A program made the position numbers and the translations under genes. A model generated the notes under the pieces. The model saw only the letters and a list, made by a program, of their open reading frames with translations. It did no database searches and was not told the origin of the DNA. Positions 13,097 to 40,812 of a DNA stretch of 40,812 bases are shown here, one piece after another. Position 1 is the stretch's first letter. Each line of letters starts with the position of its first letter. The stretch comes from an uncultured Candidatus Saccharibacteria bacterium (GTDB taxonomy: Bacteria > Patescibacteriota > Minisyncoccia > Phycocordibacterales > EsbW-18): contig CAZMAP010000002.1 in NCBI GenBank assembly GCA_964564385.1, positions 1-40,812 of the forward strand. Direction: 5' to 3'.

Positions 13097-13133
13097 ATAA
13101 GGCGACAATTAAAAGGTGATAACGAATTGAGAA

Positions 13134-15522: not shown

Positions 15523-15667
15523 TCTACGGACCCTCCTGCAGTTCTTTTTTGGCTTGTCGGCAGGTTCGTCGGATTCTGGCTCGTCATTGACTGGCCTCCC
15601 GAGAGCCTCGTTCTGGTTCTGACGTCTCCTTTGGAGTCGTGAACCTAGTCTTCGACCTAGTTTTCTT

Positions 15668-15735
15668 GGGCACTACCGCCTACCACACCCGTTGGTGTAT
15701 CAGCGGGAGCCTCGCAGCGATGCGGGGCTTTTTGT
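15668..15735 (+). repeat. ~70-nt double-hairpin element, copy A
   Basis: GGGCACT.CCGCC.ACC...CCCGTTGGTGTATCA.CGGG.GCCTCGCA....TGCGGGGC + T-run. About 80 percent identical by eye to 25496-25567. Differences fall in loops or preserve pairing. Confidence 0.75.
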
Positions 15736-15795: not shown

Positions 15796-17550
15796 ATGCG
15801 CATTGACACCGAACAGCTCAAACAATTTCTTATCGACGCGCGACTTGTCACTGAGGCTAAGCTCGCCGATATCGAGAAAGCGGCCGAGAAGAGCGACACG
15901 ACGCTCGAAGAGGCGCTCGTCTCCGAAGGTGCGCTCTCCGAAGACGATGTGCGTCGCGCAAAGGCACACGTTATCGGCATTCCGTTTGTTGACCTCAAAG
16001 ATCAAAAGATAGAATTTAGTCTTTTGTCGCTCATTCCTGAGCCCATCGCTCGAACACACAATATTGTGGCGTATGGCAAAAATGCCCGTGGTCTCGAGGT
16101 GGCCATGCTCGATGTGGGCGACCTTCAGGCAATCGATTTTGTGAAAAAGAAGACAGGCCTCTCGATCCTGCCGCGTCTCACCGATGCCGAGTCGGTGAAG
16201 CGTGCACTCCTTCAATACCAAAAGAGTCTCAAGGCCGAATTCGGCGACATCATCAGCACGGAGGCGGCGTCGCTTGTTGCTATCGCCGAGAGTGACGGCT
16301 CGGAGGCTTCGGGAGAAGATCTCAAAAAGATGGCCGAAGATCTTCCGATTGTCCGTATCGTCGATACGCTTATCAAACACGCCGTTGTTCAAGGCGCATC
16401 CGACATTCACATTGAGCCCATGGAACGCGAACTCCTCGTTCGTTATCGCATCGATGGACTCTTGCACGATGCCATGACACTTCCGCGTCAGGCGGCGCCG
16501 GGTATTGTTGCGCGCATCAAAGTACTTTCGAGTCTCAAGCTCGATGAGAAGCGTCTTCCACAGGATGGACGTTTCAAGATCGACCTCGATGGCGAGAAGG
16601 TGAGCTTCCGCGTATCAACACTTCCCACATACTACGGCGAGAAGACCGTGATGCGCGTGCTTCGTGAAGGCGGGGGAGGGTATACGCTCGAGGCGCTTGG
16701 ATTTCACGGCGAAGGGCTCGAATCAATCCATTGGGCTACCAAACAGTCGACCGGCATGATTCTTACCACCGGTCCTACCGGGTCGGGTAAAACGACCACG
16801 CTTTATACGGTGCTTGATATTCTCAATACGCCCGATGTGAACATCTCGACCATTGAGGATCCGGTGGAGTACCAAATGCCTCGTATCAATCAGACTCAGG
16901 TGAAACCCGAGATTGGTATGACCTTTGGCAACGGACTTCGTTCACTTGTCCGACAAGACCCTGACATCATCATGGTTGGTGAGATTCGTGACACCGAAAC
17001 CGCGTCGCTTGCTGTGAACGCTGCACTTACCGGACACTTGGTGCTTTCGACGCTCCACACCAATTCGGCCGCCGGCGCTATCCCTCGCATGCTCGACATG
17101 GGGGTTGAACCGTTTCTTTTGGTCTCGACAATCAAGGTCATCATTGGTCAGCGTCTTGTACGCACGCTCGCAAAGGAGAAGAAAGAAGAATACACACTTT
17201 CGAAGGCAGAGATAGCAACATTGGCAAAGACGGTAGATCTCGATCGCATGCTCAAGTTCCTTGTGGCCGAAAAAATCGTCAAAGATGGCACAAAATGGGA
17301 GGATATTACTTTCTACCGTCCAAAAGGAGGGTCCGATGTGGAGGATGGATACAAAGGGCGCTCTGGTATTCACGAAGTCTTGCACGTGACACCAACGGTG
17401 AAAGAACTCATTATGAAAGGTGCTACGGGTGATGCTATTGAGGCACAAGCCAAGAGTGAGGGGATGATGACAATGCTCGAGGACGGTGTTTTCAAGGCAA
17501 CACAGGGCATTACAACACTCGAAGAAGTGTTGCGTGTGGTGACAGAGTAG
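15796..17550 (+). CDS. pilB: Type IV pilus assembly ATPase PilB (GspE family)
   Basis: T2SSE N-terminal domain, Walker A GPTGSGKTT, Asp box VRQDPDIIMVGEIRD, His box GHLVLSTLHTN. Confidence 0.93.
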   Translation: MRIDTEQLKQFLIDARLVTEAKLADIEKAAEKSDTTLEEALVSEGALSEDDVRRAKAHVIGIPFVDLKDQKIEFSLLSLIPEPIARTHNIVAYGKNARGLEVAMLDVGDLQAIDFVKKKTGLSILPRLTDAESVKRALLQYQKSLKAEFGDIISTEAASLVAIAESDGSEASGEDLKKMAEDLPIVRIVDTLIKHAVVQGASDIHIEPMERELLVRYRIDGLLHDAMTLPRQAAPGIVARIKVLSSLKLDEKRLPQDGRFKIDLDGEKVSFRVSTLPTYYGEKTVMRVLREGGGGYTLEALGFHGEGLESIHWATKQSTGMILTTGPTGSGKTTTLYTVLDILNTPDVNISTIEDPVEYQMPRINQTQVKPEIGMTFGNGLRSLVRQDPDIIMVGEIRDTETASLAVNAALTGHLVLSTLHTNSAAGAIPRMLDMGVEPFLLVSTIKVIIGQRLVRTLAKEKKEEYTLSKAEIATLAKTVDLDRMLKFLVAEKIVKDGTKWEDITFYRPKGGSDVEDGYKGRSGIHEVLHVTPTVKELIMKGATGDAIEAQAKSEGMMTMLEDGVFKATQGITTLEEVLRVVTE

Positions 17551-17641
17551 CGCCGACAGCTTTTTCTCTGATCAAGGAGGTACACTATATCTAAAGCAAA
17601 AAGGTGAAGCCAAAAGTTAAAAGCTTGGTATACTTTTCGTA

Positions 17642-18850
17642 ATGAAGTTCTCATACAAATCTGTTACGGCAAACGGAACGGTCGAAGAAAACATTCGTGA
17701 AGCAGACGATCAGTTTGCGCTTGCCCGCGATCTTAAGGCCGAAGGAAAGACCCTCATCACGGCGGAGGAGACAGATGAAAAAGCTGCAGCCTCGCGGTTC
17801 AATCTTTCATTTGGAGGTGTGAAGCTTGCCGACAAAATCACCTTTGCCAAAAATCTTGGGGCAATGATTGATGCGGGTCTTGCGCTTTCTCGTGCCCTTG
17901 CCGTGATGGAGCGTCAGGCAAAGAGCGCAAAATTCAAAGAGATTCTTCGTGCACTTAGTACGTATGTCGAAAAAGGTTCGGCCTTGTCAGACGCGCTCGC
18001 CAAATTCCCCGAAACGTTTTCAGCGCTCTTCGTATCAATGGTTCGCGCCGGAGAGGAGTCGGGGAAGCTTGGTGATTCGCTTCGCATTGTTGCTGAACAG
18101 ATGGATCGAAGTTACGCGCTTCGTCGCAAGATTCGCGGCGCGATGATGTATCCGACGATCATTCTTTCTGTGATGGTGATCATCGGTATCCTCATGCTTA
18201 TGTTTGTTGTTCCAACCCTTACCGCAACATTCACAGAGCTCAACGTGAAGCTTCCGATGACGACGCAAGCTGTTATCTCGATGAGCGATCTTCTTACGGC
18301 CCATCCGGTAGGGGTTATTGGTGGTCTTGTGCTCTTGATTATTGCGTGCATTACCGCCTCGCGGACACGTCGGGGAAGGCGAGGGTTCGAGTTCGTTATG
18401 CTTCGTATGCCGATCATTGGCACGCTCATCAAAGAAACAAACGCCGCACGCATGTCACGAACATTTTCATCGCTCCTTTCCTCGGGTGTCGATATGGTCG
18501 CTGCCATTTCCATAACACAAGACGTTCTCCAAAATTCATTCTACAAAGAAGCGCTTGCAGAGGCGGGACGAGAAATCCAAAAGGGTGCTGCCGTCTCGGC
18601 TGTTTTTGCTCGATATGAACGATTGTTTCCGCCGATGGTGAACGAAATGATAGCTGTGGGCGAGGAGACAGGAAAACTCCCGGGCATGCTCCTTCAGATT
18701 GCAATCTTTTTCGAGGGTGAGGTCGATCAAAAAACAAAAGATATGTCGACAGTCATTGAGCCGTTTTTGATGGTCATCATTGGTGCGGCCGTTGGATTTT
18801 TTGCCGTATCAATGATTACTCCAATCTACTCGCTTTCGAGCGGAATCTAA
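17642..18850 (+). CDS. pilC: Type IV pilus platform protein PilC (GspF family)
   Basis: Two T2SSF repeats (GEESGKLGDSL and GEETGKLPGML) and three TM segments. Confidence 0.9.
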   Translation: MKFSYKSVTANGTVEENIREADDQFALARDLKAEGKTLITAEETDEKAAASRFNLSFGGVKLADKITFAKNLGAMIDAGLALSRALAVMERQAKSAKFKEILRALSTYVEKGSALSDALAKFPETFSALFVSMVRAGEESGKLGDSLRIVAEQMDRSYALRRKIRGAMMYPTIILSVMVIIGILMLMFVVPTLTATFTELNVKLPMTTQAVISMSDLLTAHPVGVIGGLVLLIIACITASRTRRGRRGFEFVMLRMPIIGTLIKETNAARMSRTFSSLLSSGVDMVAAISITQDVLQNSFYKEALAEAGREIQKGAAVSAVFARYERLFPPMVNEMIAVGEETGKLPGMLLQIAIFFEGEVDQKTKDMSTVIEPFLMVIIGAAVGFFAVSMITPIYSLSSGI

Positions 18851-25489: not shown

Positions 25490-25495
25490 TTCCTC

Positions 25496-25567
25496 GGGCA
25501 CTTCCGCCCACCTCGCCCGTTGGTGTATCAACGGGTGCCTCGCACGTTGTGCGGGGCGCTTTCGTTT
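25496..25567 (+). repeat. ~70-nt double-hairpin element, copy B (includes the terminator)
   Basis: See 15668-15735. Hairpins CCCGTT-ggtgtatc-AACGGG and CCTCGCA-cgttg-TGCGGGG, then CGCTTTCGTTT. Confidence 0.75.
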
Positions 25568-26988: not shown

Positions 26989-28671
26989 ATGACCGAACTA
27001 CTCAAAAAACTCCTTGCGTTGCGGGGCATAACGACCGAGGAAGATATCGAAAGCTTCCTTTTTCCTGATTATACCAAGCACATACTCGATCCGATGCTTT
27101 TGTCGGATATGGATGCTGCAGTCAAACGTATTATCAAGGCTTTGAAAGAGGGGGAGAAGATCAAAGTCTTCACTGACTTTGACGCTGATGGCATTCCGTC
27201 CGCGGTTCTCATGAACGACGCGCTTACGAAGCTCGGTGCAAAAGATTTTTCTATTTCGATTCCACATCGCAACACCGAAGGGTTTGGTCTCAACGAGCGC
27301 GTTGTCGACGAATGTATCGAAAACAAGGTACAACTTCTCATCACCATCGACTGTGGCATGGGCGACGCGGTTCGCATTGACCGCGCTGTTGCTGCAGGCA
27401 TCGACGTCATCGTTATCGATCACCACCAGGAAGGGGAGGGCTCCCCCTCCGGAGCCTTGGCGAAGGAGGGAGGTGCGCCGCGCTGTCTTGTCATCAATCC
27501 CAACAAAGAAGGAGATGAATATCCCAACAAGTATCTCTGTGGTGCGGGTGTGGCCTACAAAGTTGTGCAGGCAGTCATCGCTCGGCTCCGTGCCGATAAC
27601 GACACGCGTGTTGTCGAGGTACCTGTTGGGTGGGAGAAATGGCTCCTCGATATGGTTGGTATCGCAACACTCTCAGATATGGTGCCGCTCCTTGGCGAGA
27701 ACCGCGCACTTGCGCACTACGGTCTCATGGTGCTGCGTAAATCTCCGCGTCCGGGTATTCGTGCGCTGTGTCAACGTGCGCGCATTCAGCAGTCGCGGCT
27801 TACCGATGACGACGTTGTCTTTACTATCACACCTCGTATCAACGCCGCGTCACGTATGGATGAACCCGAGGCTGCATTCCGATTGCTTGCCGCAACGACG
27901 ATGCAAGAGGCGGATCTTCTTGCTGAACATCTCGAAGGCGTCAACAACAGTCGCAAGGGTGCTGTTGCATCGATGACAAAAGAGATTAATGCGATGCTCG
28001 CATCGCGCGAGGAGATTCCATCGGTTGTTGTGGTGGGCAACACGCACTGGCGTCCAGGTCTGCTTGGTCTTGCTGCCACAAAAGTCGCTGAAACATACAA
28101 TCGCCCTGCGTTTGTGTGGGGCCAAGGCGAATCGACGATGATCAAGGGCTCATGTCGCTCTGGCGGAGGCGTCGACATTATGTTGCTTATGACCGAGGCT
28201 AAAGAATGTTTCGTCGAATACGGTGGACACAAACATTCGGGTGGGTTTTCAACAACGGTGCAGCACATTGTTCGTCTCGAAGAGTCGCTCTCCGAGGCGC
28301 TCAATCGTGCGGTGGCGATAGTGCATGAAGAGGCGCCCGAGCACGATGCGGAGCTCATGCTTTCTGACGTTACTTACTCGATGCACACCGATATCCAACG
28401 CATGGCACCGTTTGGCGCAGGCAACAAGAAGCCAGTGTTCCTTTTTAAAGATTGTTTGGTCTCCGCTGCAGAGCCTTTTGGTAAAGAAAAACAACACACG
28501 CGTCTCGCACTTGGTGAGAACGGTGCTGTGTCTGCAATCCAATTCTTTTCTGATGAAAAACTCCGAGGCGTGACGGCGGGGGATACGGTCTCACTCCTCG
28601 CGCACATCGAGGAAGATGCATTTGGGAAGAGGAGAGGAATTAGGTTGAGGATTGTTGATATTGTGCGGTAA
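26989..28671 (+). CDS. recJ: Single-stranded-DNA-specific exonuclease RecJ
   Basis: DHH motifs DFDADG, ITIDCG and IDHH, plus DHHA1 GGHKHSGGF. Confidence 0.9.
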   Translation: MTELLKKLLALRGITTEEDIESFLFPDYTKHILDPMLLSDMDAAVKRIIKALKEGEKIKVFTDFDADGIPSAVLMNDALTKLGAKDFSISIPHRNTEGFGLNERVVDECIENKVQLLITIDCGMGDAVRIDRAVAAGIDVIVIDHHQEGEGSPSGALAKEGGAPRCLVINPNKEGDEYPNKYLCGAGVAYKVVQAVIARLRADNDTRVVEVPVGWEKWLLDMVGIATLSDMVPLLGENRALAHYGLMVLRKSPRPGIRALCQRARIQQSRLTDDDVVFTITPRINAASRMDEPEAAFRLLAATTMQEADLLAEHLEGVNNSRKGAVASMTKEINAMLASREEIPSVVVVGNTHWRPGLLGLAATKVAETYNRPAFVWGQGESTMIKGSCRSGGGVDIMLLMTEAKECFVEYGGHKHSGGFSTTVQHIVRLEESLSEALNRAVAIVHEEAPEHDAELMLSDVTYSMHTDIQRMAPFGAGNKKPVFLFKDCLVSAAEPFGKEKQHTRLALGENGAVSAIQFFSDEKLRGVTAGDTVSLLAHIEEDAFGKRRGIRLRIVDIVR

Positions 28672-29879: not shown

Positions 29880-30359
29880 ATGAAGAACAGCAAGATGTTG
29901 CTGTGGGCGTTCATCGTGAGCGCCTGCATCACCATCGTGCAGTTTGCGATGGTGGCAATGGGGGCTGGGGAGGTCGCGTGGATCGGAGTGGTCGGGGTGG
30001 CGGCACTCACCGTCATCACGGTGTACATGCATCGGCCTGAGGGTCCAAGCATCGTACTCGCCATGTTTTCCGTGGCGGGACTGATCCTCGGTGGTGTGTT
30101 TCAGCTGGCGGGGAAAGAAGGGGTTCTCTTTGCTGCGGCGGCGCTGGTCGTGGCGCTGTTTGTGGAATCGAGGGCTTTGACTATGAGGAGCCGTCTCGAT
30201 GGTGCTCAAGGCCTCATGCTCATGCTGGGCATGATCATCGGGTGGCAGGTTAGCGCCACCTGGACGCTCATTCTCCTCGTTTCCTGGGTGTGGGCGCTCT
30301 TCCAGGAGCACCGCCGTGCCGCCAGGTGCGCACTCCCCACGGCTTCGACAGGTACCTGA
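29880..30359 (+). CDS. Orphan 4-TM membrane protein, GC-rich cassette
   Basis: SD GAGAGGAAGGAAG. Four hydrophobic helices. A terminator CCCCGCC/GGCGGGG lies at 30390-30431. Confidence 0.6.
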   Translation: MKNSKMLLWAFIVSACITIVQFAMVAMGAGEVAWIGVVGVAALTVITVYMHRPEGPSIVLAMFSVAGLILGGVFQLAGKEGVLFAAAALVVALFVESRALTMRSRLDGAQGLMLMLGMIIGWQVSATWTLILLVSWVWALFQEHRRAARCALPTASTGT

Positions 30360-30445: not shown

Positions 30446-31912
30446 GTGGCGCATGGTGCTACCATGCGCCCCGTTTTTGTTCACACTGGATTCTGGGGAT
30501 TCCTGAGCGGTGTATCGCTTCAGTTTTTCTATGACGTTTCGTGGGAGTATGGATTTGAAGCAATCCTCGTCGGTATCGCGTTTGTTCTCATGTATAAGTC
30601 GTCAAACAAGAAGGCGATTTTTTGTTTCGCACTTTTTCTTGTTTGCTTTGGAATAGGTGTCGCTCGTTCCTACCAGTCGAGACTCTTTGCTGGTGACCCA
30701 GATATTTCCGCACATGTTGGCCAATCGCTGACCATTGAGGGAGTTATTGTGGACGATCCACAGATGAGTCCGACGGGGCAAAAGATCTTGGTTGATGTGG
30801 GGAAGGAAGACATTCTCGTCTCGGTTCCGACATATCCCATTTTTTCATATGGAGATAGGGTGAGTGTTGCAGGAAAGCTCGAGCTTCCTGAATCATTTGA
30901 AACGGACTTGGGACGGGTGTTCGATTATCCGAGGTTTCTTGCACGAAAGGGAATATTTCATGTGATCAAGCGGGGGAGCGTAGAGTTCATTGAATCAGAC
31001 CAAGGGAATCCAATCCGCGCTGTCTTTATCAAAACAAAACATGCGTTTGTCGAAAGCATCGGTCGGACCGTGTCGGAACCATCAGCAGGACTGGCATCGG
31101 GTGTCGTTCTTGGTGTCGAGGGTGCGTTGTCAAAAGAACACGAGGAGGCGTTTCGTGTTGCTGGGTTGATCCATGTCATCGTGGTTTCCGGCTACAACAT
31201 CACCATGGCAGGCGACTTCGTGCGGACGCTTCTCAGATCATTCTCTCCAATCGTGGGGTCGCTCGGGAGCATTGTCGGTATCGTCGTCTACATCATGATC
31301 GCCGGAGCGTCATCAACAGCAATCCGCGCGGGCATCATGGCCGGGCTTACCGTGCTTGCACGTGTGGTGAAACGACACTACAGCGTGACGCGGTCACTCA
31401 TGCTCGCCGCATGCGTGATGATATTTCACGTGCCGTATATCTTGCTCTACGATCCGTCATTCCAACTCTCGTTTCTCGCCACGTGGGGACTTGTTGCCAT
31501 CGCACCGCTCTATGCCAAACATCTCGAGTGGGTGCCCGAGGCGGGTGGATTGCGCGAGACGCTCGGAACAACCCTCGGTGCACAGACAGCGGTGACGCCC
31601 ATTCTCTTATATCAATCAGGCATGACCAACCTCCTCACGCTTCCTGCGAATCTCTTGGTCTTGCCCACGATGCCGCTCTTCATGCTCGGCGCTTTGGCGG
31701 TCGGCGTCGCAGGATTATTTGGTACATTCATCGCGCTTCCGTTCTCAATCCTCATCGAGGCGCTCGGCGCGTACACTTTCCGGGTCGTCAAAATCGCCGA
31801 CAGCTTTCCGTCGATGTTGGTGAAGGTGGGTGTGATGCCGATCTCAGTGCTTGTTGGCCTGTACGTGGTGATTGGGGTGTGGGTGTTATTTGGACGAAAA
31901 GGCGACAATTGA
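30446..31912 (+). CDS. comEC: ComEC/Rec2 competence channel protein (DUF4131 plus Competence domains, no MBL domain)
   Basis: OB-like N-terminal domain, then FRVAGLIHVIVVSGYNITM and multiple TM helices. The start may be the ATG at 30464. Confidence 0.85.
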   Translation: MAHGATMRPVFVHTGFWGFLSGVSLQFFYDVSWEYGFEAILVGIAFVLMYKSSNKKAIFCFALFLVCFGIGVARSYQSRLFAGDPDISAHVGQSLTIEGVIVDDPQMSPTGQKILVDVGKEDILVSVPTYPIFSYGDRVSVAGKLELPESFETDLGRVFDYPRFLARKGIFHVIKRGSVEFIESDQGNPIRAVFIKTKHAFVESIGRTVSEPSAGLASGVVLGVEGALSKEHEEAFRVAGLIHVIVVSGYNITMAGDFVRTLLRSFSPIVGSLGSIVGIVVYIMIAGASSTAIRAGIMAGLTVLARVVKRHYSVTRSLMLAACVMIFHVPYILLYDPSFQLSFLATWGLVAIAPLYAKHLEWVPEAGGLRETLGTTLGAQTAVTPILLYQSGMTNLLTLPANLLVLPTMPLFMLGALAVGVAGLFGTFIALPFSILIEALGAYTFRVVKIADSFPSMLVKVGVMPISVLVGLYVVIGVWVLFGRKGDN

Positions 31913-31948
31913 AAGGCAACAATTCATTTTCATTTAGATTGTCGCCTT
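31899..31948. terminator. Bidirectional hairpin between convergent comEC and sodA
   Basis: AAGGCGACAAT(31899-31909) pairs with ATTGTCGCCTT(31938-31948). Confidence 0.7.
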
Positions 31949-32584
31949 CTAATCCTGAATCGCTTTATCAAACCACTCAGAGACTGTCTCCCAGTTGATC
32001 GCATCAAGATATGCCGCGGCATACGTTGCCTTGTCGGCCGGAGCATAGTCCAAAAGATATGAGTGTTCCCACATGTCCAAGGTGACAATAGGGGACAGGC
32101 CCGTCAGGTGACCCAAGTGCTGTTCGTCGACCCACTGGGTGAGGAGTCGCTTGGCGATAGGGTCGTAGTAGAGCATTGCCCAGCCGATGCCGCGGGTGAG
32201 GGCGATGGCCTTGAACCGGTTCATGAAGGCGTCGACGCTGCCCCACGTTTCGGTTATTGCCTGTGCGAGAGCGCTGTCTGCCGAGAGGGCTTTGGGGCCA
32301 CCCTCAAGGGCGCCAAAGTAATATTCGTGGTTTCGCATGCCGTCGAATTCGAAGGCAAAGCGGCGCTGGAGCTCGCCAAGGGCGTATGCGTTTGCCCCCG
32401 CCTGCGCCAAGGCTCCGGCGGACAGGTCGGAATCCTTGGAGTACTCCTCAATCTTGCCAAGGACAACATTTGCCTGTTTTACGTACCCTTCATAGAGCTT
32501 GATGTGGGTTTCAAACGTCTTGGAAGAGATGCCGGGAACCTCCGGAAGTGCAAACTGGCGGGCTGAGTAGGGGGTAGTGGTCAT
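31949..32584 (-). CDS. sodA: Fe/Mn superoxide dismutase
   Basis: DMWEHSYLLDY, NHEYYF and GWAMLYYD. The start is taken at MTTTPYS (32584). Confidence 0.88.
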   Translation of the reverse strand: MTTTPYSARQFALPEVPGISSKTFETHIKLYEGYVKQANVVLGKIEEYSKDSDLSAGALAQAGANAYALGELQRRFAFEFDGMRNHEYYFGALEGGPKALSADSALAQAITETWGSVDAFMNRFKAIALTRGIGWAMLYYDPIAKRLLTQWVDEQHLGHLTGLSPIVTLDMWEHSYLLDYAPADKATYAAAYLDAINWETVSEWFDKAIQD

Positions 32585-33552: not shown

Positions 33553-35373
33553 ATGTTTCTGTTGATCGCGTTTTTGTCCGCTCTCGTCGGCGCGTTGCCA
33601 CTTTTCCTTCGTGGAAAAGTGGGGGCCGCCATCTGGGCCGCTTGCGGCTATGGTGTCGTGAACACCGTCCTCTTCTACGTGTCGTGTCCGTCTCTGGCCT
33701 ATCCGATTTTCGGCGGGGTCGGCTTCATGACCCTCATCTGGCTTTTCGTTTCAGCCGGAATCGACGGGTCTGGCGACTACGGCTTCGAGCTCACGACGTC
33801 CGCCTGGGCACCCATCGTGCTTCTGGCCGCGTTCATTCTCGTGCTCGCCGGTTCGTGCAGTATGTTCCGATCGGACGACTACTATCGCCTGATCGGGGAC
33901 GTTGAGAAGCGCGAGTGGACGAAGGATGTCCAGCCCAAGGATCCCAGGCACGTCCGTCTGGTCCCTGAGAAGTTGGCCTATTACCTCGCTACCAAGCAGT
34001 TGGGTGAGGCCGGCGGCGCCATCGGTAGCCAGTTCTCGGTCTCCGAGAACAGTCTGACGCTCCAGGAGTTCCACGGCGAACTCTGGTACGTGGCTCCGCT
34101 CGAGTTCAAAGGCTTCAGTGTCTGGACTTCTGCGGATGTCACGCCGGGCTTCGTCATGGTTCACGGCGAGGACCCCAACCGCCCGGCAATCGTGAAGACC
34201 GGACACCAGTTCCGTTTCATGGAGAGCGCGTACTTCGGCGACAACGCTGAGCGCCACCTCTGGAAGGACGGCTACTGGAACAAGGTTCTCTCGGATTGGA
34301 CGTTCGAGATCAACGAGGAGGGCAAACCCTTCTGGGTGGTTACGGTTTCCAAACCGACCATCGGATGGGGAGGCTCTAAAGTTCTCGGCGTCGTGGTCAT
34401 GGATCCGACGAGCGGTGAACACACGTTCTACGCCGTTGGGTCGGTCCCGAAGTGGATCGACCGCGTGTATCCGAGTCACATCGTCTCCAACTACATCAGC
34501 AATTGGGGGCGGTTCGCCTCAGGATGGTGGAACAGTTTTTGGGGCAAGAAGGACATCATGAAGCCCGAGGAGCCGAACATCATCTACGGTGCAGATGGCG
34601 ATCCGTACTGGGTCACCGGCCTGACGTCGACCAACATCAAGGACAACTCCATGGTTGGCCTGATGTACACCAACAGCAGGACCGGTAAGTCGGTCCGGTA
34701 TCACGCTGTCGGCGGCACGGACGAAGCGGTCATCGAGTTGGTCAACAACAAGGTGGCCTACCAGAAGTTGAGCGGCGCTGCGCCGGTTCTGTACAACATC
34801 TACGGAGAGATGACCTCGATCGTGCCTCTCCTCGGTGAGAGTCACACGTTTCAGGGAGTTGCGTTCGTCGATGTGCGGAACATGCGTCTCGTCGTCGGTA
34901 AGGACCAGGAAGACGCCGCCCGTCAGTACCAGGAACTTCTTGCTACGAGCGGTCAGCAGTTGGCTCCCGAGAAGTCGCGCGATTCGGTCGAGAAGGAATT
35001 TCAGATCGACCGAATTTCGGCGGCGAGTGAGAACGGTACGACGGTGTACTATCTCTACGTCGCGAAGGAGCGCCACATCTTCACGGGTACGAGGAAGGTT
35101 TCCTCGGAACTCGTCGTGACGCAGCCCGGCGACCACGTCCGCGTTCGGTATGTGAATTCGGGCGAAGGTGTCATGCCGATTCTGAGTCTCAAGAATCTCG
35201 ACATCCTCATCGAACAGACCGACGTGCAGCGGCAGTTGGCCGAGCGCGTCGAGTCCAGGAAGGATGAGGTGTCGCTTTCCGAAGAGGGGAGGTCGGCACG
35301 CGGAAGGTTGGAGGAGATGACCGACGAAGAAATCGGGAGACTCCTCCAGAAGCTTGACAACGAGAAGAAGTAG
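33553..35373 (+). CDS. Orphan 606-aa membrane protein (N-terminal ~4 TM, large extracytoplasmic domain, C-terminal coiled coil), GC-rich cassette
   Basis: SD GGGAGGAG. The ORF is uninterrupted with protein-like composition. A terminator lies at 35423-35453. No family assigned. Confidence 0.7.
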   Translation: MFLLIAFLSALVGALPLFLRGKVGAAIWAACGYGVVNTVLFYVSCPSLAYPIFGGVGFMTLIWLFVSAGIDGSGDYGFELTTSAWAPIVLLAAFILVLAGSCSMFRSDDYYRLIGDVEKREWTKDVQPKDPRHVRLVPEKLAYYLATKQLGEAGGAIGSQFSVSENSLTLQEFHGELWYVAPLEFKGFSVWTSADVTPGFVMVHGEDPNRPAIVKTGHQFRFMESAYFGDNAERHLWKDGYWNKVLSDWTFEINEEGKPFWVVTVSKPTIGWGGSKVLGVVVMDPTSGEHTFYAVGSVPKWIDRVYPSHIVSNYISNWGRFASGWWNSFWGKKDIMKPEEPNIIYGADGDPYWVTGLTSTNIKDNSMVGLMYTNSRTGKSVRYHAVGGTDEAVIELVNNKVAYQKLSGAAPVLYNIYGEMTSIVPLLGESHTFQGVAFVDVRNMRLVVGKDQEDAARQYQELLATSGQQLAPEKSRDSVEKEFQIDRISAASENGTTVYYLYVAKERHIFTGTRKVSSELVVTQPGDHVRVRYVNSGEGVMPILSLKNLDILIEQTDVQRQLAERVESRKDEVSLSEEGRSARGRLEEMTDEEIGRLLQKLDNEKK

Positions 35374-36379: not shown

Positions 36380-36772
36380 ATGATGGAGAAAGATTTTAGC
36401 AACTGGCACAGAAAGAAGTCGTGGATCCAAAAAGACAAGGTCAGACCCTTCTTTCATGAGCAAGAAGTCTGGTTTGCTTTGGTGGGTTCGAATGTGGGGT
36501 TTGAGCAGGATGGAAGAGGAAAAGACTTTCTGCGGCCCGTCATTATCGTTAAAAAGTTTAATGATTCGATAGGTTGGTGTTTGCCTCTTACAAAAAAGAA
36601 GAAATCAGGTGAATACTATTTTGTTGTGACACATGGAGGTGGAGTCATCAGCACAGCTATCCTGTCCCAGCTCCGTCTCATTGATGCAAAACGTCTTCTC
36701 TATCAATCAGGAAATGTGATGGATGCTGATTTTGAACAGATAAAGAAAAGGCTCACTCGATTTCTCGAATGA
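36380..36772 (+). CDS. PemK/MazF-like toxin-fold protein, no adjacent antitoxin ORF
   Basis: EVWFALVGSNVGFEQDGRGKDFLRPVIIVKKFN...CLPLT resembles the PemK-like family (WW.NLG.N.G.EQ.G....RPVL+LKKFN). Confidence 0.5.
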   Translation: MMEKDFSNWHRKKSWIQKDKVRPFFHEQEVWFALVGSNVGFEQDGRGKDFLRPVIIVKKFNDSIGWCLPLTKKKKSGEYYFVVTHGGGVISTAILSQLRLIDAKRLLYQSGNVMDADFEQIKKRLTRFLE

Positions 36773-37206: not shown

Positions 37207-37639
37207 AAGCTCCAAATTCCATGGTCACAAAATCCAACTAAATTCCAATGACTGAAACCCAAAACAAAAAGCCGTATGATCTCGGGGAAAGAACGTTTGC
37301 TTTTGCAAAAGAAATCCGCGAGATTTGCAGGGTTACACCAAAAACACCTCTTAATATTGATGATATAAAGCAGCTCGTTAGATCTTCGGGTTCAGTCGGA
37401 GCTAATTACATCGAAGCGAATGAAGCGCTCTCAAAGAAGGATTTTATCCATAGGATTGGGATATGCCGAAAAGAATCGAAAGAGAGCGGGTACTGGATCC
37501 GTCTATTGTTTGGTGATGATCAAAAGGCAAAAGACATGTTTCAGGAGTCAAAAGAGCTCGTAAAGATATTCAATGCTATTATTATGTCTAAGAAATAAAT
37601 TGGTTTTGGAATTTAGTTGGATTTTGGAATCTGGAGCTT
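37207..37639. mobile_element. Four-helix-bundle gene cassette bracketed by ~35-42-nt terminal inverted repeats
   Basis: 37229-37248 is the perfect reverse complement of 37606-37625 (20 nt). 37207-37220 pairs with 37626-37639 with one mismatch. The left arm has an 8-nt bulge. Confidence 0.6.
37248..37598 (+). CDS. Four-helix bundle protein (23S rRNA intervening-sequence protein family)
   Basis: FAFAKEI......LVRSSGSVGANYIEANEA.SKKDFIHRIGICRKESKES.YWIRLL is typical of the family. Confidence 0.8.
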   Translation: MTETQNKKPYDLGERTFAFAKEIREICRVTPKTPLNIDDIKQLVRSSGSVGANYIEANEALSKKDFIHRIGICRKESKESGYWIRLLFGDDQKAKDMFQESKELVKIFNAIIMSKK

Positions 37640-39068: not shown

Positions 39069-39560
39069 ATGCGTCGTCCTCTCAAAGAAAAACAGAAACA
39101 CCCAGCGATTAAAGACCGCGCATATGATTCTGCAACGGTCACAAAGCTCATCAATTACGTCATGATTGGCGGCAAGAAGTCGACTGCACAACGTGCCGTC
39201 TACGACGCGCTCGAAGAAATCAAAAAGGCAGGCAACGCAGACCCCGCGGCACTTCTCGAGACAGCAATCCAAAACGTTGCTCCCACCATGGAGGTCCGTT
39301 CACGTCGCGTCGGTGGTGCCAACTATCAGGTTCCGTTTCCAGTTCGTCCTGAACGTCAGCTCGCATTGTCGCTCCGTTGGATTCTTGGTGGCGTCCGCAG
39401 CAAAAAGGGCGCTTCGTTTGGCACACGTCTTGCCAACGAGCTCATGCTTGCAAGCAAGGGAGAAGGGGAGGCAATGAAAAAGCGCGAAGCAGTGCACCGT
39501 ATGGCAGAAGCCAACAAGGCATTCGCTCACTTTGCTTTCAGCCGAACGCAGAAGAAGTAA
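39069..39560 (+). CDS. rpsG: 30S ribosomal protein S7
   Basis: GKKSTAQRAVYDAL, EVRSRRVGGANYQVP and KKREAVHRMAEANKAFAHF. Confidence 0.93.
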   Translation: MRRPLKEKQKHPAIKDRAYDSATVTKLINYVMIGGKKSTAQRAVYDALEEIKKAGNADPAALLETAIQNVAPTMEVRSRRVGGANYQVPFPVRPERQLALSLRWILGGVRSKKGASFGTRLANELMLASKGEGEAMKKREAVHRMAEANKAFAHFAFSRTQKK

Positions 39561-39676
39561 GGCGACAATCGAAACTTTCAATAGCAATGAAAAGCACCCA
39601 AGAGGGTGTTTTTCTGTTATAAAACCAAGATAAAATCTCTGGTTGCGGGGGTCGAACGGGGGAGTATGATTCGGGT

Positions 39677-40021
39677 ATGAAAAAGGAACCGGTAACACTC
39701 GAAAAGGTCGCGACTAACGTCGAAGAAGTTGCCAGCAAGGTCGACTCACTTGCCTCGAAGGTGGATTCCCTTACCTCGACTGTTACAGAACTGGCCGAAG
39801 CAACCTATAACGGTTTTGCTCGTGTTCAAGAAACTCTTGCGACAAAAGCCGACAAGACCGATATTGCACGGCTCGACAAACGTATCGACAAAACAGATGA
39901 GAATATCAGGTATCTCCGCCTAAAAGTCGATGACGTTCACGAAGAGCTTCGCGGATTCACATCTGATGTTCGTGATGAGCTTTCCACGCGGATTACGGTT
40001 CTCGAAAAGAAGCAGGTGTAG
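39677..40021 (+). CDS. Hypothetical coiled-coil protein
   Basis: 114-aa ORF with heptad-like repeats (KVDSLASKVDSLTSTV). No motif recognised. Confidence 0.5.
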   Translation: MKKEPVTLEKVATNVEEVASKVDSLASKVDSLTSTVTELAEATYNGFARVQETLATKADKTDIARLDKRIDKTDENIRYLRLKVDDVHEELRGFTSDVRDELSTRITVLEKKQV

Positions 40022-40028
40022 TCCAAGG

Positions 40029-40051
40029 TTGTCAAAACAGCCTTGCGTGCT
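40029..40051 (+). repeat. 23-nt direct repeat, copy 1 (TTGTCAAAACAGCCTTGCGTGCT)
   Basis: Identical to 40785-40807. Here it is followed by GGTGCG, with no -10 box. Confidence 0.9.
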
Positions 40052-40784
40052 GGTGCGTCGTTGCCCGTGGGGATGTCAAGCTATTGAACCATTACGTGTA
40101 TATTGACATATGAGGTTTTTTATATATATTCTCGAGTAGAAAATAACCCTCCGCATTATGGAGAGAAAGTGAGAGAAGGGGTCATGAAGAAGATTCTCGG
40201 TTGGGCGATTCTGGCGGTCGTCCTGGTGACGGCACTGTACTTCGGGGCACTGGCCGCCGGAGTGCCAGACGACGTTGCGATCACCTGCTTCATCGGTGTA
40301 GTTGTGTTCCTCATCTGCACCGAAACCGTGTTCGTCGATAGCCTTTGGCTCGCCAACATTTTTCGGCAACCCATCGCCTCCGTCTACAAGTCCACTATCA
40401 TCACTAGTTGTATCCTTGTAGCGCTCTTTGCCGGCATCAGCTTCTTTGGCGATACGTCGCTTCAGGAAGCCGTTCTGGCGCTCTACGGCTTCCTTCTCTT
40501 CGGAGGACCTGTCTTTGCGTTCATGACTGCTTCCAACTACAAGGACAGAGTGGGTTTGGTGTTCTTCGCACATCTCGTCGGCATCGGCGGCATCTGTGGT
40601 GTTGTCGAGTTGCGTACCTGGTGGCCCGCGGCCATCGCGGTCGTGATTCTCGGCGTGTGGTGGTTCATCCTCCACGTTGCCGAGAGGATCGAGAAGATCA
40701 CTCCGGCCGCAGTGTGACCAGCCCCATCGTTCCTTCCGAACCCCCGACATGGCTGCACGCCTGTCGGGGGGTTTGCATAACTGA
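40052..40784 (+). mobile_element. 733-bp insertion cassette (promoter, membrane-protein ORF, terminator) bounded by the 23-nt direct repeat
   Basis: Internal promoter TTGACA(40103-40108)-16-TATATT, the ORF 40184..40717, and a terminator at 40741-40774. No recombinase is encoded. Confidence 0.55.
40184..40717 (+). CDS. Orphan multi-TM membrane protein, GC-rich cassette
   Basis: SD GAGAGAAGGGG lies before the ATG at 40184. There are 5-6 hydrophobic helices. No motif recognised. Confidence 0.6.
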   Translation: MKKILGWAILAVVLVTALYFGALAAGVPDDVAITCFIGVVVFLICTETVFVDSLWLANIFRQPIASVYKSTIITSCILVALFAGISFFGDTSLQEAVLALYGFLLFGGPVFAFMTASNYKDRVGLVFFAHLVGIGGICGVVELRTWWPAAIAVVILGVWWFILHVAERIEKITPAAV

Positions 40785-40812
40785 TTGTCAAAACAGCCTT
40801 GCGTGCTATAGT
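40785..40812 (+). promoter_or_regulatory. 23-nt direct repeat copy 2, forming an intact promoter TTGTCA-16-TATAGT for the gene beyond the window end
   Basis: TTGTCA at 40785-40790 and TATAGT at 40807-40812. The repeat ends inside the -10 box. Confidence 0.6.

Follow-up and report, generated by a model that had tools for sequence, protein, structure and literature searches.

Two copies of a fusA promoter segment flank a membrane-protein gene in the hypervariable rpsG-fusA slot of an uncultivated Parcubacteria lineage

Introduction

How does a gene-sized unit come to lie between two exact copies of part of an essential gene's promoter, and how does that promoter stay complete? The question is raised by the 3′ end of contig CAZMAP010000002.1 (GenBank assembly GCA_964564385.1), from an uncultivated member of the Parcubacteria. 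The stretch that we analyzed, called the window here, is this entire NCBI contig of 40,812 nt, and its last base, 40812, lies 5 nt past the second copy of a 23-nt direct repeat. The two copies, R1 (40029-40051) and R2 (40785-40807), are both on the forward strand; the 733 bp between them hold a small transcription unit encoding a 177-aa multi-helix transmembrane (TM) protein, and the gene past R2 is fusA, which encodes EF-G. The original prediction for this locus was that a cassette had inserted into a resident promoter and duplicated 23 nt of its target, possibly at an att core. We compared the window with Logan contigs of the same lineage, with an outgroup, and with relatives' contigs, which were reached via homologues of a neighboring coiled-coil (cc) protein and by DNA pattern searches. 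We are inclined to ascribe the arrangement to recombination across the promoter segment within a hypervariable intergenic slot.

Results

The repeat, TTGTCAAAACAGCCTTGCGTGCT, is exact at both positions (0 mismatches), and allowing for as many as 3 mismatches brings up no third copy in the 40.8-kb contig. Two matches to the 23-mer were obtained in 0/100 shuffles that preserve dinucleotides. The 23-mer spans the −35 hexamer of the fusA promoter and its 16-nt spacer, and it closes with the initial T of the −10 box. R2 continues into ATAGT and thereby gives TTGTCA-16-TATAGT, TG-extended; this predicted fusA promoter (40785-40812, forward strand) runs to the end of the contig, which stops at the final −10 base. 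R1 carries the same −35 box and spacer and continues into GGTGCG, so that the −10 box is absent; the promoter caller was silent there, and R1 is probably inert. Other strong promoters of the contig have spacers unrelated to R, and the exact 23-mer had no match in JGI metagenome contigs or in viral contigs.

This repeat structure is real and not an artefact of assembly. The R1 junction is present in the independent Logan contigs L001-L008, which come from separate sequencing runs, and the R2 junction in L001-L004; the 13.6-kb contig L001 crosses both, reads on into fusA and extends 4.7 kb beyond. A single mismatch (1/23) is found in R1 of one strain allele, that of L004. The filled-site junctions can be written as GTAGTCCAAGG-R-GGTGCG and CATAACTGA-R-ATAGTGCC, an empty one as GTAGTC(C/T)AAGG-R-ATAGTGCC, and a circle or tandem junction would read CATAACTGA-R-GGTGCG.

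Relatives carry the segment once. We found the single-copy site in 10 contigs from at least five lineages (L009/L015; L010-L012; L013; L014; L016/L017; L018), and each of these contigs shows one TTGTCA-N16-TATAGT followed by a hairpin, a T run and fusA, with no TM gene. TTGTCA and CGTGCTATAGTGCC are invariant in L009-L017 and in L018, and the spacer differs at 3-5 positions; because the boxes are invariant while the spacer varies, we take the fusA promoter to be real. A degenerate form of the promoter pattern searched against GTDB matched only L018, a Candidatus Parcubacteria metagenome-assembled genome, in which rpsG, a terminator, the promoter and fusA follow one another with nothing between. 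This match places the source of the window in the Candidate Phyla Radiation. The anatomy that had been proposed from the window (a perfect repeat, a resident promoter at the second copy and a first copy without −10 box) is thus borne out, and so is the expectation that an empty site, one copy followed by ATAGT, would exist in relatives.

In L001, fusA starts 63 nt past the −10 box, and immediately 3′ of that box stands a hairpin, GTGCCC-AGAC-GGGGCA, with a T run behind it (L001:8902-8935). A hairpin and T run recur at this position in L009, L010, L013, L014, L016, L018 and the outgroup contig L019; the stems are kept and the loops vary, with a T-A to C-G change in L019. Promoter and hairpin together form a compact promoter/terminator overlap. 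The hairpin probably stops read-through from upstream, with fusA transcripts starting inside or beyond it.

The rpsG-fusA spacer is hypervariable and serves as a slot for self-contained transcription units of small size. Across the clade it holds nothing, a cc gene, a TM gene or other orphan genes. The cc gene is the occupant in L014. It is also present in L009, L010, L015 and L016, each of which has in addition orphan open reading frames (ORFs) upstream of it, mutually unrelated; in L013 the promoter is directly preceded by a different unit. The occupants in L010 and L013 are not flanked by copies of R. In the window lineage a cc unit and a TM unit stand in tandem, and the promoter segment R follows each of them. 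The first occupant is the 114-aa cc gene (39677-40021, forward strand), which ends 7 nt short of R1. Its product has homologues in six clusters, at 50-80% identity, and in the sister clade, defined below, 7 nt likewise separate the cc gene from one R-like promoter, behind which fusA follows. The gene is absent in L018 and L019, and a profile of the protein had no confirmed match in GTDB genomes.

The orphan ORFs in the slot lie at L010:1190-1640, L013:120-720, L009:110-574, L015:228-680 and L016:438-902. L010 and L013 share a TTTACAG...GCGTATAGT promoter right behind the terminator T run, and in both a T run, TTTTCTKTT, recurs at the two borders of the unit.

A homologue of the TM protein, P0011, is 36-39% identical to it and is encoded on the 173-kb JGI contig L019, whose gene order is syntenic with that of the window (SOD, Hydrolase_2, Lactamase_B, L28, M50, rpsL, rpsG). 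P0011 sits between rpsG and fusA there, in a slot without cc gene or direct repeat. The L019 and window units align over the promoter (ATTGAC), the hairpin and ribosome-binding-site region of the 5′ untranslated region, and the terminator (CCCCGAC...GTCGGGG). In both, the terminator directly abuts the fusA −35 box, which in L019 belongs to a TTGCCA-N17-TATAGT promoter. The TM unit does not, then, appear to be random foreign DNA, and its product, first described as an orphan, turns out to belong to a small family with a member in the same slot.

EF-G of the window is ~95% identical to that of the single-copy relatives, with a synonymous divergence (dS) of fusA of 0.9-1.06; among these relatives (L009-L018) the values are 95.8% and 0.40, and between the window and L019 they are 83% and ~1.8. 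From these divergences, the single-copy relatives form the sister clade of the window lineage and L019 is the outgroup. The R2-side junction is old because the junction of TM terminator and fusA promoter is common to L019, and the R1-side junction is old because the cc stop codon, the 7 nt and the promoter are common to the sister clade. The sole novel junction is then 40051|40052 (R1|GGTGCG). R1 and R2 share 4 spacer states unlike those of the nearest relatives, and this lineage-specific spacer, together with the identity of the two copies, suggests that the arrangement was made or remade recently; that is, it may have been created, recreated or homogenized. Copies that had been free to diverge since ancient times are improbable because a fusA dS of ~0.9-1.06 predicts many differences. 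The idea of a cassette inserted into a promoter therefore stands only in part: the promoter is split and the empty sites exist, but both outer junctions are old and only 40051|40052 is new. Because the R2-side and cc-R junctions are old, insertion of a foreign unit is one possible description, and it may equally be that the cc gene and a promoter copy were joined upstream of a resident TM unit.

Strain variation bears on how independent this unit has been. Ten contigs carry an identical cc protein, and the slot filling was checked in 8 of them; comparison of contigs with this protein gives three cassette alleles, namely the window, L004 and L005/L008 types. The flanks, from the 3′ end of rpsG through the cc gene on one side and R2 with the fusA leader on the other, are 99.8-100% identical to the window type, with 1 difference in 468 nt upstream. 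Between them, the cassette ORF has 87.6% (L004) and 82.2% (L005/L008) nucleotide identity to the window type, and the non-coding promoter region of the L005/L008 type 58-80%. On the left, divergence begins ~4 nt before R1 in the L004 type and 34 nt after R1 in the L005 type; on the right, it ends 36 nt before R2. All alleles retain an intact reading frame, with a dS of 0.14-0.21 and dN/dS (the nonsynonymous-to-synonymous ratio) of 0.7-1.2. Because such diverged alleles sit in near-identical flanks, the history of the TM unit is partly independent of that of the backbone.

Contig ends nearly coincide in these data: the window ends at 40812, L003 at the position equivalent to 40811, and L005 and L008 both at that of 40554, inside the ORF. 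Shared break points of this kind suggest co-occurring haplotypes in the samples. Logan assemblies use k = 31, and a simple bubble formed with an empty site was rejected as the cause of the contig ends, for it predicts a break at R2 + 7 and L003 stops at R2 + 4.

The unit itself begins with a segment adjoining R1 (GGTGCGTCGTTGCCCGTGGGGATG..., 40052-40086, forward strand) that is kept in 3/3 cassette alleles, with 1-3 differences among them, before an abrupt divergence in the L005 type. This segment weakly resembles a module of GC hairpin and T run. When the sequence next to R1 was compared with the hairpin region of the fusA leader, the resemblance reached p 0.001-0.01 in the L005 type, was marginal in the window type and was none in the L004 type. 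A longer, degenerate duplication of ~55-60 nt (R, −10 box, hairpin and T run) is possible, supported for one allele only, and the resemblance could also be a generic terminator feature. Downstream follow the predicted promoter of the unit (TTGACA-16-TATATT, 40103-40130, forward strand), with 11/12 consensus matches; the 177-aa gene, second occupant of the slot (40184-40717, forward strand), preceded by AAGGGG; and a terminator hairpin, CCCCCGACA...TGTCGGGGG (40737-40775, forward strand; −25.7 kcal/mol, z = −2.26), which contains a 9-bp perfect inverted repeat. Both promoter hexamers are kept in the 80%-identical L005 allele, and ATTGAC in the homologous unit of L019. A cassette with its own promoter, gene and terminator had been proposed, and all three were located within the 733 bp.

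The GC content at third codon positions (GC3) of the 177-aa gene is 0.72, against 0.50-0.57 in neighboring genes, and the unit is single-copy in the contig. Pfam and PHROG gave no match to the protein, and a word-indexed search retrieved only its own alleles; exhaustive HMMER and profile searches recovered a small TM family whose members are 53% (P0010) to 29% identical to it and share MKKxLGW and WWPAA..LGVWW as conserved motifs. P0012, P0015 and P0014, the last of these on a 59.5-kb contig, also belong to this family. An AlphaFold2 model is all-helical and of low confidence (predicted local distance difference test score, pLDDT, 55.7), too poor for a fold search.

Features of a mobile element were sought and not found. 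Neither recombinase nor transposase is encoded among the 41 scanned ORFs of the contig, those of the cassette included, in agreement with what had been predicted; no terminal inverted repeats link the unit's ends; neither R nor the 177-aa protein appears in viral or phage collections (PHROG, IMG/VR, and tblastn against GenBank phages); and an Rfam scan of the window returned two tRNAs only and no other known RNA family.

The upstream backbone of the slot is rpsG, for ribosomal protein S7 (39069-39560, forward strand; Pfam Ribosomal_S7, E = 2.8e-53), whose 163-aa product was called identically in the Logan contigs. An intrinsic terminator follows it (GCACCC-AAGA-GGGTGT and T run, 39590-39618, forward strand; −19.8 kcal/mol, z = −6.15), and equivalent terminators precede the slot in L018, L019 and L010. 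With rpsL upstream of rpsG, the context is that of a cellular str operon (S12, S7, EF-G).

Other parts of the contig offer observations in their own right. A (T)AAGGCGACAAT motif occurs four times (13098-13109, 31898-31909, 31938-31949 on the minus strand, and 39558-39569), with 0.21 occurrences expected and such a count in 0/100 shuffles. Its copies lie at or overlap the 3′ ends of a SIMPL-domain gene, ComEC, SOD and rpsG, and it is also found after rpsG in L010; it may be a signal associated with 3′ ends or terminators. The contig starts (1-40) with the 3′ part of a tRNA, GGTTCGAATCC..., whose last 15 nt, CCCTTAGCGCCCACA, recur at 218-232, with GC-rich palindromes between these repeats, which lie ~190 nt apart; this looks like a remnant attL/attR-type duplication. 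A 55-nt direct repeat, TTTCTTGGGCACTACCGCC...GGTGTATCAGCGGGAGCCTCGCA, is found at 15662-15716 and 25490-25544; its copies, with 85% identity and 9.8 kb between them, are situated at ends of ORFs that are unrelated. Compared with L019:2219-4744, the window has extra genes in the backbone at 33553-35373, 36380-36772 and 37248-37598, which encode a 606-aa protein without Pfam match (GC3 0.79), a PemK/MazF-like toxin (0.44) and a 23S-rRNA intervening-sequence protein (0.41); several backbone spacers, beyond that of rpsG-fusA, have therefore accepted compositionally deviant genes. ORFs without Pfam match and with a GC3 of 0.72-0.79 lie at 995-1792, 29880-30359, 33553-35373 and 40184-40717 (housekeeping genes, 0.51-0.59), each behind a near-consensus sigma-70 promoter (984, 29803, 33467 and 40103, respectively); they are the class that the original prediction called GC-rich cassettes.

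Discussion

We hold with moderate confidence that recombination across the promoter segment, within a hypervariable slot, produced the present arrangement, and that no dedicated transposase or integrase was needed. Our starting points are features that can be read directly at the locus and in its relatives: the anatomy of the repeat, the empty sites, the homologous unit of the outgroup, the divergence of the alleles and the absence of mobile-element features. The route that we infer from them would involve a chromosome of the cc-R-fusA type and DNA of a conspecific or close relative carrying TM-terminator-R, perhaps with fusA. Homology would be supplied by the promoter and the highly conserved fusA leader, and one illegitimate junction would have arisen at some point. 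Candidate routes include unequal crossover, homology-anchored import after DNA uptake, and Campbell-type integration of a circle carrying the TM unit and R; the direction and the recency of the event are likewise inferred. Such a duplication would leave fusA expression intact, R2 with its −10 box driving the gene, and recombination between R1 and R2 would delete the unit precisely, leaving the one promoter that relatives have. We considered and rejected an origin of the insert by tandem duplication of the fusA 5′ region and later overprinting: a local alignment of the insert with the 900 nt past R2 scored 21, against a shuffle mean of 20.9.

Precedents for the individual steps exist. In bacteria, 10-18% of small variable segments have flanking direct repeats, mostly <30 bp, and highly diverged ("homeologous") blocks inside identical backbones are known from bacterial microdiversity (PMC2884548). 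Natural competence has been demonstrated in another lineage of the Candidate Phyla Radiation (CPR), the Saccharibacteria, according to what PMC10633639 states on this point. The contig carries genes for a PilB-like ATPase, a PilC-like platform protein, RecJ and ComEC (15796-18850, 26989-28671, 30446-31912), which make a plausible toolkit for DNA uptake and processing.

Several points weigh against recombination across the promoter segment. R, at 23 nt, does not exceed the length that efficient RecA recombination usually requires and may fall short of it, as cited in PMC2884548. Neither a donor nor a circular form of the TM unit was found, and the novel junction at 40051|40052 has no explained origin. 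In the L005 type the left limit of divergence falls 34 nt within the cassette and not at R. Within the window's own species the empty site was not encountered, the slot being filled in 8/8 of the contigs listed. Neither the start sites of transcription nor the activity of the two promoters goes beyond prediction. Finally, on parsimony, the small tree, with the TM unit in the outgroup and the window but not in the sister clade, suits an old two-copy state as well or better, given a process that homogenizes R1 and R2.

That last point leads to the alternative that survives best, although we think it doubtful: the layout cc-R1-TM-R2-fusA could be ancestral to the window lineage and its sister clade, the single promoter of relatives being the product of deletion between R1 and R2, with either gene conversion or recurrent loss and regain keeping the copies of the window lineage identical. 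L019 has a TM unit in its slot and the sister clade has the junction of cc, 7 nt and R, so that both units could, on parsimony, predate the split, and deletion between short direct repeats is well documented (PMC2884548) and would yield the empty site that we observe. Yet at a fusA dS of ~0.9-1.06, and with 3-5 spacer differences in relatives, R1 and R2 differ at 0/23 positions (1/23 in L004); 23 nt is very short for gene conversion; and no sister-clade contig that we saw has a two-copy site.

It is also conceivable, and in our judgment improbable, that R is the identity core of attL and attR, in which case the 733-bp cassette would be integrative but non-autonomous and served by a recombinase elsewhere, as in cis-mobilizable elements or Xer-dependent modules. 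Exact repeats do enclose the unit, and its divergence boundaries come close to them; the repeats are young and the unit is old; contigs tend to break at or within the unit (the window's end, L003 at 4 nt past R2, L005 and L008 at the same point); and the 34 nt adjoining R1 are kept in all alleles. An identical core at both ends and a single core at the empty site are present as well, which any recombination across R predicts equally. Against this, the genes called on the extra 4.7 kb of L001 include no recombinase, nor do the contig's 41 scanned ORFs, although one may be encoded elsewhere in the genome; R lacks dyad symmetry and flanking inverted binding sites, and it occurs nowhere else in the contig (up to 3 mismatches) or in the viral and JGI metagenome collections; the slot occupants of L010 and L013 have no R flanks; and an outgroup without any repeat has the junction of TM unit and promoter in synteny.

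We consider it very improbable that R is a transposase target-site duplication and the cassette a non-autonomous transposon. A direct repeat flanking an insertion, which is all that speaks for this, stands against the lack of terminal inverted repeats, the absence of transposase domains in the scanned ORFs, the single copy of the unit, and homologous units that are syntenic and not dispersed. At 23 nt, R is also longer than usual target-site duplications, for which there are rare exceptions of the IS1634 type. The target-duplication and att-core mechanisms that had been suggested thus lose their footing, as nothing at the locus points to a transposase or an integrase. An assembly artefact or chance repeat, of which the contig ends 5 nt (NCBI) and 4 nt (one Logan contig) past R2 might be a sign, has a negligible probability, given that assemblies of at least five separate runs span R1 and four span R2 with identical sequence, L001 spanning both, and that a second match arose in 0/100 shuffles.

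If recombination across the promoter segment is the correct reading, the question becomes which known system the locus resembles most. In the T4-type phages RB49 and phi1, an ORFan lies between two promoter/stem-loop (PeSL) cassettes where the sibling genome has one, and mini-circles were proposed as intermediates (Arbiol et al. 2010, PMC2839356). The likeness is considerable: an orphan ORF stands between two sigma-70-type promoter modules, with a single module in the sibling or relative; a stem-loop terminator accompanies the promoter beside its −10 box; the repeat permits loss of the ORF, possibly as a circle, or its gain, with regulation of the neighbor intact; and the ORFs are without known function in a hyperplastic region. 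Unlike the phage case, the window is a cellular CPR chromosome, at the str operon; PeSL modules are dispersed in tens of copies, whereas R has only 2 copies in 40.8 kb; the shared stretch is 23 nt here and ~100 nt there; R1 has no −10 box or clear stem-loop; and no mini-circles were seen here. The arrangement works like a PeSL event and is not a PeSL member, since the dispersed repeat family is missing.

Small variable segments, and the homology-facilitated illegitimate recombination associated with them, offer a second comparison (Touzain et al. 2010, PMC2884548), and the unit fits this class well. Like these, the unit is a sub-kilobase presence/absence segment in a conserved backbone, has a direct repeat of <30 bp with one copy at the empty site, lacks mobile-element features, encodes a membrane protein and forms a highly diverged block in otherwise identical strains; one homologous anchor and one illegitimate junction would explain its structure. 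It differs in that the repeat is a functional promoter part, the promoter being split yet preserved, and in that the host is an uncultivated member of the Parcubacteria and the recombination route is putative. Phage morons (PMC3594210) are likewise autonomous promoter-ORF-terminator units of deviant GC3 between conserved genes; the window unit, by contrast, has no phage context, is flanked by direct repeats and has a homologous unit in synteny in a distant relative. Integron cassettes and cis-mobilizable integrative elements share with it the single-gene unit bounded by repeats and without its own recombinase; there is, however, no attC-like imperfect palindrome, intI or attI here, the unit has its own promoter, and the repeats are direct copies of the host promoter and not borne by the element. 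In sum, this is no new class of mobile element and is a fairly ordinary gene-sized recombination indel.

A bolder idea, for which we see only a slim chance, is that R is the dedicated crossover site of a chromosomal system of single-gene cassette exchange in Parcubacteria. Orphan units would circulate, perhaps as R-bearing mini-circles taken up via ComEC and type IV pili, and would enter or leave the fusA slot by recombination in the −35 box and spacer. If true, R-mediated exchange would keep fusA expression, and the identity of R1 and R2, automatically, and cells would then have their own equivalent of the phages' PeSL shuffling, or a platform that resembles integrons but lacks attC.

Why, then, does this locus matter? 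It is a case of gene-sized gain or loss within the very conserved rpsL-rpsG-fusA operon that does no harm to an essential gene. Fast-evolving orphan genes use the rpsG-fusA slot, and the alleles of one occupant are 12-18% diverged, which makes the slot useful for following strain-level variation in Parcubacteria, possibly in genes for the cell surface or for interaction with hosts. Should recombination across the promoter prove to be recurrent, the "regulatory cassette shuffling" known from phages would extend to cellular genomes.

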